The position numbers were made by a program, and so were the translations under genes. A stretch of 20,530 nt of DNA from Octopus sinensis. Taxonomy: Eukaryota. This document shows positions 10,547-20,530 of this stretch, piece by piece. The notes below the pieces were generated by a model. That model had not been told where the DNA came from, did not search any database, and was given only the letters and a program-made list of their open reading frames with translations. The stretch's first letter is position 1; every line of letters begins with the position of its first letter. The DNA lies in contig NW_021823974.1 in NCBI RefSeq assembly GCF_006345805.1, forward strand, positions 1 to 20,530, in the 5' to 3' direction.

Positions 10547-10814
10547 GTATGTCGGTCGATTATCCTTTTGTTATGAAGTATACCGAAACAGATCATATAA
10601 TTAGACTGTGTTTCTGAGTTGAGATGGGCGTAACGCGAAATGCTTTTCTCTATATTAGTTGGTATTTTTTTGCCCTGAATCAATTATAGGTTTTCCTCAT
10701 TTAAATGAGGCAGAATTTCAATCCGTATTCCAAGAAATAATTTCTTGCATTACAGATGATGAGACAAAATTCAGCACAACTTTTCCGTATCCAAACATGA
10801 GTTTCCCAAATTTT

Positions 10815-10853
10815 ATATACTACATATATTTATATACATACATATATTATATA

Positions 10854-10934
<81 letters not shown>

Positions 10935-10961
10935 AATATACATATATATATATATAAATAT

Positions 10962-11003
<42 letters not shown>

Positions 11004-11224
11004 GTATAATATATATATTATATATATTTATATATATATATCATATATATACATTATATACATATATATATAATATTTATATATATATATATTTATATAT
11101 ATATTATATATATATATTTATATATATATTTATATATATATATTATTATATATATATATATTAAATATAATATATATATATATATATATATAATATATAT
11201 ATATATAATATATATATATTATAT

Positions 11225-11260
<36 letters not shown>

Positions 11261-11285
11261 TATTTATTTATATATATGTATATAT
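10815..11285. repeat. ~470-bp imperfect (TA)n array
   Basis: Almost purely A/T. Confidence 0.97.
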
Positions 11286-11506
11286 TACGGAGATATACAT
11301 CCATAGGAAATGACTTGATCGGAGATCGCGTGCTGAAACAAAACCAATTGCAGCAAAGAACGTGCAGCGCGGAATTTTGTCAGTGAACAGGTCGCGGTTT
11401 CAAAGTGACGAAAATATTTTGACAAATTAATCTAAATGTTGAAGAGAATCTAACGGCTTTTGTGTGTTTTAAATGGCTTATAAACACACTTCAACGCTGC
11501 AATTGT
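11286..11506 (+). mobile_element. Short non-coding island in (TA)n; probable non-autonomous PLE pLTR or retrozyme-like element
   Basis: Sharp microsatellite boundaries, an internal HHR-like fold, and inverted copies caattgcagc (11345-54) / gctgcaattg (11496-11505). Confidence 0.55.
11373..11428 (+). ncRNA. Variant type I hammerhead ribozyme (G3:C8 core, UUU triplet)
   Basis: Stem I tttgtca(11376-82)/tgacaaa(11420-26); core GTGAACA 11383-89; extra G 11390; stem II gtcgc/gtgac; GAAA 11410-13; palindrome AAATATTT. Confidence 0.6.
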
Positions 11507-11577
<71 letters not shown>

Positions 11578-14471: not shown

Positions 14472-14638
14472 TCTTTTCTTTTCTTCTCTAGCAACAAGGC
14501 CCGAAATCTTGGGGGAGGGGACCAATTGATTTGATCGACCCCAGTACAAAACTGGGACTTAATTTATCGACACAGAAAGGATGAAAGGCAAAGTCGACCC
14601 CGACAGAATTTGAGCTCGGAATGTAAAGGTTAAGACAG
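14472..14638 (-). mobile_element. SINE family A (5'-truncated)
   Basis: acaaggcccgaaatcttgggggagggg...gatcgaccccagtac...aatttatcgacacagaaaggatgaaaggcaaagtcgacc...agaatttgagctc. Confidence 0.85.
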
Positions 14639-17310: not shown

Positions 17311-19200
17311 CTTGTTTACAAATTTTTCTGGGCAACCTATTTTCCTTAAAATTAACCACAGAGCATTTTGATTAACAGTATCGAATGCCTTGCTTAAATC
17401 AACAAAGCAATGGTATAGGGCAAGTTTCTATTCAATGCACTTTTCCTGAAATTATTTGATAGTAAAGATACAATCAACGAAAACTACATTTAGGCTCCAT
17501 ATTTGGAACTGTGATGGCATTAAAATTTCTAACAGAATGCAGAAGAGCACCTTTCCATCTACAAAAGTGAAATCCCACAAAAATTACTACACAAAACCTT
17601 TGGCCCTGATTTATACAAGGCGACTAAAATGGCATCAATCCAGTCTTGAATTACTTCCTAAGTTCTCCAATAGTGAGAAATTAATATATTTCAGTGTTCA
17701 AACGTTTTGCCACTCCGATATGACAAGACTTCTACACAGATTCCATAGACCCTGGAGACTTATTGTTATTCAGCTTATTCACAGCTAAATGAATGTCATT
17801 TAGAGATGGTTCAAATGCCATCTCGTCTATAACTGGAAGGTGTTCGAGCTTTTCTAACATCCTCATGTCAACGGATGCTGGTCTATTCAAAAGTGCAGAA
17901 AAATGTTCTACCCAGCGTTTATAGATAGAAGCAGTGTCAGTCAAAAGCAAATGTCCATTTGCTCTTCTCACTGGAGTTATTGAAGAAGATTTGGTGCCAT
18001 ATACATCCTTATCATAAGAGTACAATCACCTTGGCATCATTTCTATCAGCCCCTTTTGCTATCATTCTACCATCTCTACTTAATTTTCCTTAGCGCAGAC
18101 TGCACTTTCAGCTTTCTATAAGCTTCGCTTCAGTTGGGGTTCAAGAACTGAGAAAGAAGTGTATTGCCGAAGTTTTGTTTTTTCTAAAAGTAGATCATTA
18201 ATTTGTGGTGATTTTTCTGAAAACTAGTCACTGGACTTATGCGATTTAAATCCCACTGAAGAACTTGCAGCCTGAAATACTTTTGTTTTGAAACCTTTCC
18301 ATAGATTGTTTGGATCAAGATTGATACTTTCTATAGCATCGTGGAATCTTTGCAAGTTGCTTGGTAATTTGAAGTTTGCAACATTTAACATTTTGGCTAC
18401 CTTAGGATCAGGCTGTCGACTTTTAGGCTTTATTGAAAAATTCCTTTTACCACGCACTTGATGCTGGTCAGTCCAGCTCTCTGCTCCACTCATGGCCCGA
18501 ATACTAGAAACATCTTTCATATCACGCTTTCTGATCAAAACATAATCTATGAACTGCCAGTCCTTAGATCTTAGGTGCATCCATGTGGTTTTATATTTAT
18601 TTTTCTGCTTAAACAAAGCGTTGATGACAACCAAATTATTCTCAGCACAAAACTTCAAAAGAGCTACTCCATTTTCATTACATTTTCCTATCCCATATCA
18701 GCCTGAAACAGGCCATCAAATGTAGTCATTTCCATCTCTTGCCAGAAATCTCTCAATATAACCAGCTTATCAGAAATTGGTACTTTCCTCAATAATGGTG
18801 CTAGATTGTCATAAAACTGTCTTACAGTTTCGTCAGAATGAGACATTGTTGGTACATAAGTAAGAAGCCTACTTTTTGTCAGCTTTATATAGCATGACTT
18901 GGTTCGTTCAGATATACCACTTGGAAATTTTGCCATGGAGGATACTAGTTAATTCTTTAGAGCAAACCCAACACCAGATTCTCTACGCTGACCTTCATGT
19001 ATGCCTTTCCAGAAGATAGTATATCCATAAGTAGGTTCATTTATTTAACCCTCACCAGAAGGACGAGTTTCAGAGAGCGCAATTATATCAAGGGAATATT
19101 TTTTAAGCCCACATGCAATACGGGAAGTACGCCTTTCTGGCCTCTTGTTAAAATTGTTCTCTAGAAGTGTGCACACATTCCAACAGCCAAAATTCAGAGG
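17311..19200 (-). pseudogene. RTE endonuclease-reverse transcriptase ORF disrupted by stops and frameshifts
   Basis: PLNFGCWNVCTLL...RPERRT...DIIALSETR...GYTIFWKG; YVPTM...FYDNL...DKLVILRDF; TTWMHLRSKDWQFIDYVLIR; RWVEHFSALLNRP; NNKSPGS; CFVDLSKAFDTVN...GCPEKFV. Confidence 0.93.
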
Positions 19201-19841: not shown

Positions 19842-20530
19842 CGACCAACACTTCAACGCCAAACACGAAGGATGTGCTGTCAGAGCTAGGATGCGTGCTC
19901 TAAGGAACGAAGGTGTTGGAGCCGAGAGAGGCCCGGGTGGCAGAGGCGCAACAGGGCACACAAAGCCACCATTCGGTCACTGGTAGATGAACAGGGGCGC
20001 GAATTGCTCGAGCCAAGTAAAATGTGTGAGGCCTTTCAGCAGCATTTTGCCCGACTGTTCGGAACGAGTGGAGGGCAAGAACGTAGGGTGGACTTCAGTG
20101 CCTACCTACATAGCCTACCACGACTCTCGACAAGAAAGGCAGGGTGCTGCGAAGGTGCCATCACGGCGGCGGAAGTGCGGGAAGCGATGGCAGAATGCTC
20201 GAGGGACAAATCACCGGGTTTGGATGGTCTACCCTACGAGCTTTACAATTGTATGCCAGACTTGTTTGGAGATCTCTTGGCGGCGGTGTACTGCAACTGG
20301 CAGCAAAACGGGAGCATTCCTGGTTTTGTGAGCCGAGCAGCGGTAACACTGCTGAAGAAAGATCTAAACAAGGGAAATGTAATAGATAACTTTAGGCCCA
20401 TCACTCTGCTTAATGCAGACTTGAAAATTTTGGCCAAGGTGCTAGCCAAGAGGTTGGCACTTGTCATCGAGAAACTGGTCGACAAGGCGCAAACATGCGC
20501 CGTGCCAGGCCGGACCATCCATGACAACCT
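19841..20530 (+). mobile_element. Tx1/L1-clade non-LTR retrotransposon ORF2 (linker and RT domains 0-2), 5'-truncated, continues beyond the window
   Basis: Frame open from about 19968 to the window end, missed by the ORF track because it has no stop: TIRSLVDEQG...CEGAITAAEVREAM...KSPGLDGLPYELY...VTLLKK...NFRPITLLNADLKILAKVLAKRL...QTCAVPGRTIHDN; frameshifts near 19925-19965. Confidence 0.92.

Follow-up and report, generated by a model that had tools for sequence, protein, structure and literature searches.

At positions 11376–11426 of its forward strand, the window (the whole stretch of 20,530 nt of Octopus sinensis DNA analysed here) carries a motif with the layout of a type I hammerhead ribozyme, in which the pair between core positions 3 and 8 is G3:C8 instead of C3:G8. 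In the hammerhead active site, it is this 3:8 pair that serves as the textbook case for compensatory changes. As the swapped pair is the normal form of a very abundant repeat, detected in the runs of four organisms, the motif looks like a natural ribozyme variant overlooked by standard searches. Its derivation from a hammerhead is very probable, and it would more likely than not cut RNA in some format. The explanation that we slightly favour is that of a G3:C8 hammerhead belonging to a high-copy family made up of Penelope-like elements (PLEs), or to a short non-autonomous derivative of them, in which C3:G8 would have been replaced by G3:C8 family-wide.

Fold of the hammerhead candidate

All the elements of a type I hammerhead were found where the preliminary description had placed them (table 1). 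Two stems surround the core strands to form a three-way junction: stem I with 7 bp (TTTGTCA with TGACAAA, all seven pairs Watson–Crick) and stem II with 5 bp (GTCGC at 11391–11395 with GTGAC at 11405–11409, including one G.U pair in the window copy), the latter capped by loop II at 11396–11404. The first core strand reads GTGAACA, which supplies G3 and C8 and does not match the literal consensus CUGAnGA; an extra G follows it, and the opposite core strand is GAAA. The candidate keeps U4, G5, A6, A9, G12, A13, A14 and the A15.1–U16.1 pair, whereas H17 is a weak U. A14 and U17 are unpaired in the active hammerhead. The sequence said to replace stem III, AAATATTT, is indeed a palindromic 8-mer; since it takes in both A14 and U17, however, the palindrome able to form helix III is reduced to the 6-mer AATATT.

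Table 1. Features of the hammerhead candidate and of the repeat carrying it, with positions in the window.
Feature	Position	Strand	Basis
Stem I, 5′ strand	11376–11382	+	sequence; no other letter at 4% or more in four runs
Core strand G3-U4-G5-A6-A7-C8-A9 (GUGAACA replacing CUGAnGA)	11383–11389	+	sequence; no other letter at 4% or more in four runs
Extra nucleotide separating A9 from G10.1, as is usual in PLE hammerheads	11390	+	sequence; PMC4209133; no other letter at 4% or more
Stem II, 5 bp, closing pair G10.1–C11.1, 9-nt loop; G.U 11394:11406 in window copy	11391–11409	+	fold, sequence, family depth
Core strand G12-A13-A14-A15.1	11410–11413	+	sequence; no other letter at 4% or more
Self-complementary AAUAUU; helix III possible only between two copies	11413–11418	+	sequence; predicted duplex −0.2 kcal/mol
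U17; cleavage predicted by analogy at 11419/11420	11419	+	position in fold; every other letter below 4%
Stem I, 3′ strand, with G at 11422 in 17–32% of family depth (pair kept)	11420–11426	+	family depth
(TA)n array, left; probable insertion target	10814–11285	.	repeat scan
(TA)n array, right; probable insertion target	11507–11573	.	repeat scan
Direct part of repeat copy (putative solo pLTR / 3′ end)	11363–11506	+	depth profile; loose ends before 11363 in four runs
Inverted copy of the element's 3′ end, with tail of approx. 58 nt at 11286–11343	11286–11364	−	alignment; opposite-strand joints

By its folding energy alone the motif stands out only modestly (−12.6 kcal/mol, z = −2.07): of 200 shuffled sequences, 6 fold equally well, and z falls to −0.06 once 81 nt of context are folded along. 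The minimum-energy fold has both stems but lengthens stem I by an eighth pair, G3.U17, a state that is likely inactive. Helix III would consist of six A–U pairs, for which −0.2 kcal/mol is predicted, and the co-fold predicted for two copies does not contain it.

The swapped core as the norm of a repeat family

Twenty-four sequencing runs under four organism labels were considered, none containing more than 0.21 of the words, and four of them were used, one per label. Contigs were aligned at 80% likeness, a cut-off that hides more distant subfamilies (any C3:G8 relatives included), and variants were reported from 4%. The contigs aligning to the stretch numbered 2,721, 3,082, 5,615 and 4,537 per run, and most were 90–95% identical. 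Thousands of distinct contigs per run indicate a high-copy repeat; its summed depth, a figure that is not a copy number, peaks at 0.4–2.7 million over the hammerhead.

In all four runs, no other letter makes up 4% or more at 11376–11392, 11410–11421 and 11423–11426, and no indel is listed inside 11376–11426. G3:C8 and U17 are thus the norm of the family, and the swapped core is not a mutation private to the window copy. The preliminary description had made its case depend on positions 3 and 8 staying complementary from copy to copy, which they do, and its interpretation as a natural variant ribozyme is partly supported, the swapped core being the usual form in the repeat of all four runs. Among the sequences within 80% likeness, no C3:G8 subfamily reaches 4% in any of the four.

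CpG-type transitions occur at 11393–11396, 11407 and 11409, at 2–8%. Beyond such plain CpG decay of G–C pairs, two stem positions change, both with pairing preserved: the A-to-G change at 11422 turns a U–A pair of stem I into U.G, and 11406 is C in 92–95% of the family depth, giving a G–C pair with 11394 where the T of the window copy gives G.U. Non-CpG variation is found in loop II (variable at two sites, 11399 and 11401), downstream of the motif, or in the form of the U–A to U.G change that preserves stem I. The conservation or covariation of core and stems anticipated earlier was accordingly found in part: GTGAACA is kept and the stem variants keep their pairing, but the stem changes seen in the four runs at the 80% cut-off are one-sided and wobble-keeping, with no two-sided compensatory change among them.

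Non-CpG polymorphic sites represent 1 of 42 positions in stems and core versus 10 of 43 in loop II and downstream (Fisher p = 0.007), in a comparison that leaves out CpG sites and the near-fixed private difference at 11445 and that pools regions of very different depth. Limited to 11376–11426, the same comparison yields 1 of 42 versus 2 of 9 (p = 0.077). As this test is post hoc and the uniformity of copies partly reflects their master copy, its outcome is suggestive only. Indeed, transposon copies inherit the sequence of their master, so that invariance by itself does not amount to selection. A protein-coding constraint was excluded, the common variants at 11401 creating stops in two forward frames and the core holding a stop in the third; a weak search, in which three shared 5-mers were required, gave no protein match to the repeat.

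Positions 11451, 11401 and 11431 behave as subfamily markers that set organism A, which is window-like, apart from organisms B, C and D. At 11451, G accounts for 0.2% of the depth in organism A versus 78–94% in the three others.

Predicted mechanism and activity

Positions 3 and 8 base-pair in the hammerhead (PMC3088659); residue 8 supplies the 2′-OH that serves as general acid, and G12 is the general base (PMC6155905). In transcripts holding tandem or paired copies, two motifs would pair through AAUAUU and build helix III between them. G3 would then pair with C8, setting the 2′-OH of residue 8 opposite G12, and cleavage would follow on the 3′ side of U11419, at a slow rate and probably helped by a protein that the element encodes, as happens with anole Poseidon. 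For a PLE hammerhead, a single C3G or G8C change was described as abolishing cleavage and the double change as partly restoring it, protein being needed (PMC11167929), and PLE hammerheads are poor cutters that act only as dimers (PMC4209133).

U17 is possibly a co-adaptation to the swapped pair. C17, the residue normally found there, would form an inhibitory Watson–Crick pair with G3, and for a G3–C8 variant G17 was reported to give more activity than C17 (PMC3884650, ‘data not shown’), so that a residue other than C at position 17 may have been co-adapted. U17 is usually poor for cleavage; it appears in none of the 12 hammerheads tabulated in PMC1636495, where it is described as excluded in natural ones with a triplet starting with A. 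Taken with the all-A–U helix III and the predicted G3.U17 trap, this residue argues for low rates, and the best reading is that cleavage would be weak and would proceed with dimer or protein assistance.

Depth continues across the predicted cut site, which implies that the copies derive from uncut or re-joined RNA; the anole element likewise inserts from uncut RNA (PMC11167929). Copies running across the cut site are also what a hammerhead descendant that no longer cuts would leave. Since PLEs can insert without cleavage, a master with a degenerate core could still have been amplified, its stems being kept as a signal for folding or for binding a protein. For the Poseidon element of the anole (PAc), hammerhead-dead mutants left insertion in vitro unaffected, and none of the RNA-seq reads had an end at the cut site (PMC11167929); moreover, G3:C8, U17 and a helix III of A–U pairs only bring three unfavourable features together in the candidate. 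We nevertheless judge such a loss of cleavage rather unlikely, as both changes from the consensus are transversions and restore exactly the one Watson–Crick pair of the core, while U4, G5, A6, A9, G12, A13, A14, A15.1 and U16.1 are all canonical with no variant at 4% or more, a pattern that would be rare under random decay.

Anatomy of the carrier element

The window consists of AT-rich, microsatellite-rich eukaryotic DNA, in which the repeat occupies a 221-nt island (11286–11506) between two (TA)n arrays. On its left side, 11341–11364 of the reverse strand aligns to 11487–11509 of the forward strand over 18 of 24 columns, with ten exact bases at 11345–11354 and 11496–11505. Opposite-strand joints were recovered at 11343/11487 in all four runs and at 11354/11487 in three of the four (one or two contigs each): in these other copies, the sequence near 11487 continues into the reverse complement of 11354 or 11343 downward. 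The inverted 3′ piece and the joints together indicate that the left end bears the tail of approximately 58 nt, and that the right end has none. Many copies begin near 11363, where 63–140 contigs per run have long loose ends that are mutually unlike (agreement 0.43–0.44).

At approximately 11358–11363, the consensus of these loose ends terminates in some runs in a pyrimidine run followed by CAG, resembling a 3′ splice site. An intron end at helix I is described for Drosophila Penelope (PMC4209133).

Inverted truncated pieces, one-sided tails of 30–40 bp and (TA)n targets have been described for PLEs (PMC8557442), and the tail has been attributed to the use of two start sites by the reverse transcriptase (RT), both lying downstream of the hammerhead (PMC11167929). 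The window copy displays an inverted truncated piece on its 5′ side, a tail at one end and (TA)n on both sides. The preliminary description had also likened the motif to Penelope-type hammerheads, and the extra nucleotide after A9, the G10.1–C11.1 pair and the short palindromic helix III bear out this comparison (PMC4209133). No PLE ORF, which would encode a telomerase-like RT and a GIY-YIG endonuclease, is present among the ORFs of at least 90 aa in the window, the RT-like pieces elsewhere in it being LINE-like, and no RT or endonuclease gene linked to the repeat was found. The available portion of the published Naiad, Chlamys and Hydra consensi, three Octopus Naiads included, gave no match to five 10–12-mers, in a text where line wraps can hide matches; under the same limit, none of 13 GTGANCAG sites in the consensi supplement was seen by eye to have stem II and GAAA. 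With no PLE ORF and no match to published consensi, we infer PLE membership from anatomy, which makes it likely that the repeat belongs to these elements.

That Naiad and Chlamys elements, which are said to be hammerhead-free, hide a G3:C8 variant was not supported by the motif searches in the available consensi.

PLE pLTRs carry type I hammerheads with C3:G8 cores and a U3:A8 subtype, with approximately 1,300 matches in Schistosoma (PMC4209133). The candidate resembles these (Cervera and de la Pena 2014, PMC4209133) in its type I layout, the extra nucleotide that separates positions 9 and 10.1, the G10.1–C11.1 pair, a palindromic helix III region that would require a dimer, mostly solitary dispersed copies and a low expected activity. 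It differs from them by its G3:C8 core, by U17 and by having no linked PLE ORF here, as well as by its stem lengths (7 bp for stem I and 5 bp for stem II, versus 4–5 and 7–8; PMC4209133). The candidate would function like, and probably descends from, PLE type I hammerheads. The window copy itself is a truncated fossil of approximately 220 nt with no partner nearby, probably inert and without a role at its locus; the window contains neither a second copy of the island nor head-to-tail tandem units.

Head-to-tail junctions, which would set two motifs side by side, were detected in two of the runs. One leads from 11430 to 11375 in run X6 (a unit of approximately 60 nt, depth 3227), and the other from 11487 to 11375, with 12 letters between, in X6 and X4. 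The 60-nt unit of X6 comprises little beyond the hammerhead, and is possibly a hammerhead minisatellite in that organism.

An active G3:C8 hammerhead could alternatively be part of a non-LTR retrozyme or of a satellite-like tandem repeat, with a circular RNA intermediate, rather than of the pLTR of an autonomous PLE. Like the non-LTR retrozymes (Cervera and de la Pena 2020, PMC7229834; bioRxiv 10.64898/2026.07.22.740005), the family is a short, AT-rich, non-coding animal repeat with a type I hammerhead, and no ORF was found in it. Its stem sizes of 7 and 5 bp and its short helix III palindrome place it closer to the canonical type I hammerheads of animals than to min-HHRs (PMC4209133), many copies start approximately 20 nt upstream of the core, and the head-to-tail junctions point the same way. 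However, retrozymes form tandem arrays with canonical cores (PMC7229834; bioRxiv 10.64898/2026.07.22.740005), whereas in the window there is only one unit, which has an inversion, a tail and a swapped core; the junction depths shown, at most 3227, are tiny compared with the summed 0.4–2.7 million; and having an additional nucleotide behind A9 is characteristic of PLEs (PMC4209133). We therefore regard a retrozyme or satellite as an improbable carrier. Since retrozymes have been proposed as PLE derivatives (bioRxiv 10.64898/2026.07.22.740005), this reading and the PLE reading overlap.

Searches with relaxed descriptors and chance resemblance

A descriptor accepting any Watson–Crick pair at 3:8 was run on both strands of the window, and its single match was the site at 11376–11426. 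When the window, stripped of its microsatellites, was simulated 300 times with an order-2 Markov model, loose matches arose at a rate of 0.01 per window, and none of the 300 windows had one this good; the type I topology first proposed is supported. In 19 of 64 metagenome parts, 120 sites shared the core and the base of stem II; none of these had a stem I of at least four pairs, the best having three, and no copies of the repeat family were found in metagenome contigs. With E values of up to 10 allowed, none of the Rfam hammerhead models matched the 221-nt island, as would be expected from the earlier suggestion that standard consensus searches miss the variant; scanning the whole window gave microsatellite noise only, among the 150 of 232 matches listed.

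It is very improbable that nested hairpins of a MITE, Helitron or SINE merely happen to hold GUGAACA and GAAA, for although Rfam recognises no hammerhead even at E 10, the folding z is only −2.07 and no protein establishes the class of the repeat, equal quality was reached in none of the 300 simulated windows and none of the 120 core-matching metagenome sites, and four PLE-hammerhead traits that a hairpin does not need occur together (the extra nucleotide, G10.1–C11.1, the palindromic helix III and the insertion anatomy).

G3:C8 hammerheads were also sought in viral contigs, with few stem II types covered. None passed the stem filter among 45 sites with a GCC/GGC stem base or among 13 with GTC/GAC, and a G3:G8 control under the same filter gave 0 of 31. 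Likewise, with few stem II types covered, none passed of the eight G3:C8 sites among 120 non-G8 sites, nor of the two among nine. One viral contig (L005) displays a type I hammerhead-like fold with a stem I of 5 bp, a stem III of 9 bp, GUA and an unpaired C3:A8 core, and in three others (L066, L091 and L007) the hammerhead-like folds are of type III and have the U3:A8 core already known.

Relation to known core variants

In the literature searched, U3:A8 is the only natural 3:8 swap in print, nature otherwise using C3:G8 (PMC3088659 and PMC4209133). For G3:C8, only engineered cases were found, though a natural one may have been reported before; natural G3:C8 is not mentioned in the available portions of PMC10085705, PMC13725137, PMC6765202, PMC7229834 and PMC2920678. 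Like the natural U3:A8 variants (Perreault et al. 2011, PMC3088659), the present core represents a natural covariation at the 3:8 Watson–Crick pair. Whereas U3:A8 takes two transitions, however, G3:C8 needs two transversions, and it is fixed in a high-copy eukaryotic repeat. A further close counterpart is the engineered C3G/G8C hammerhead of the anole Poseidon element (Frangieh et al. 2024, PMC11167929), with the same pair in a PLE context. That construct is a laboratory mutant and partly active, whereas the G3:C8 described here is a natural family sequence; furthermore, the PAc ORF begins in stem II (PMC11167929), and no such ORF is evident in the repeat studied here.

Building on the G3:C8 hammerhead that we favour, an entire Penelope-like lineage might run on an active third core form, combining G3:C8 with a co-adapted non-C17 in thousands of copies across several related animals. 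This broader proposal is tentative and in our view somewhat doubtful. If true, a family-wide natural G3:C8 with U17 would widen the known sequence space of the hammerhead and mean that current descriptors undercount ribozymes, and it would provide a natural test of the 3–17 mispairing model. G3:C8 cores being invisible to CUGAnGA descriptors and to Rfam, some retroelement families regarded as ‘ribozyme-free’ may carry such cores. The high-copy family, with its subfamilies in several species, also offers material on whether PLE hammerheads are kept for cleavage.

Other repeats in the window

Two LINE-like remnants were observed. The first, at approximately 17700–18700 on the reverse strand, has broken endonuclease/RT-like frames without a Pfam match; the second, at 19890–20528 on the forward strand, has an open frame of 213 aa that matches RVT_1 weakly (E 6e-5), without reaching the Pfam cut-off. 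No tRNA gene was called in the window. A SINE-like repeat is present in five diverged copies (14491–14630, 3801–3936, 6678–6734, 8805–8893 and 3127–3202), 71–81% alike to the first. Finally, 5027–5177 and 5599–5749 form inverted arms of 151 nt, 89% complementary, that enclose a (TA)n-rich stretch.
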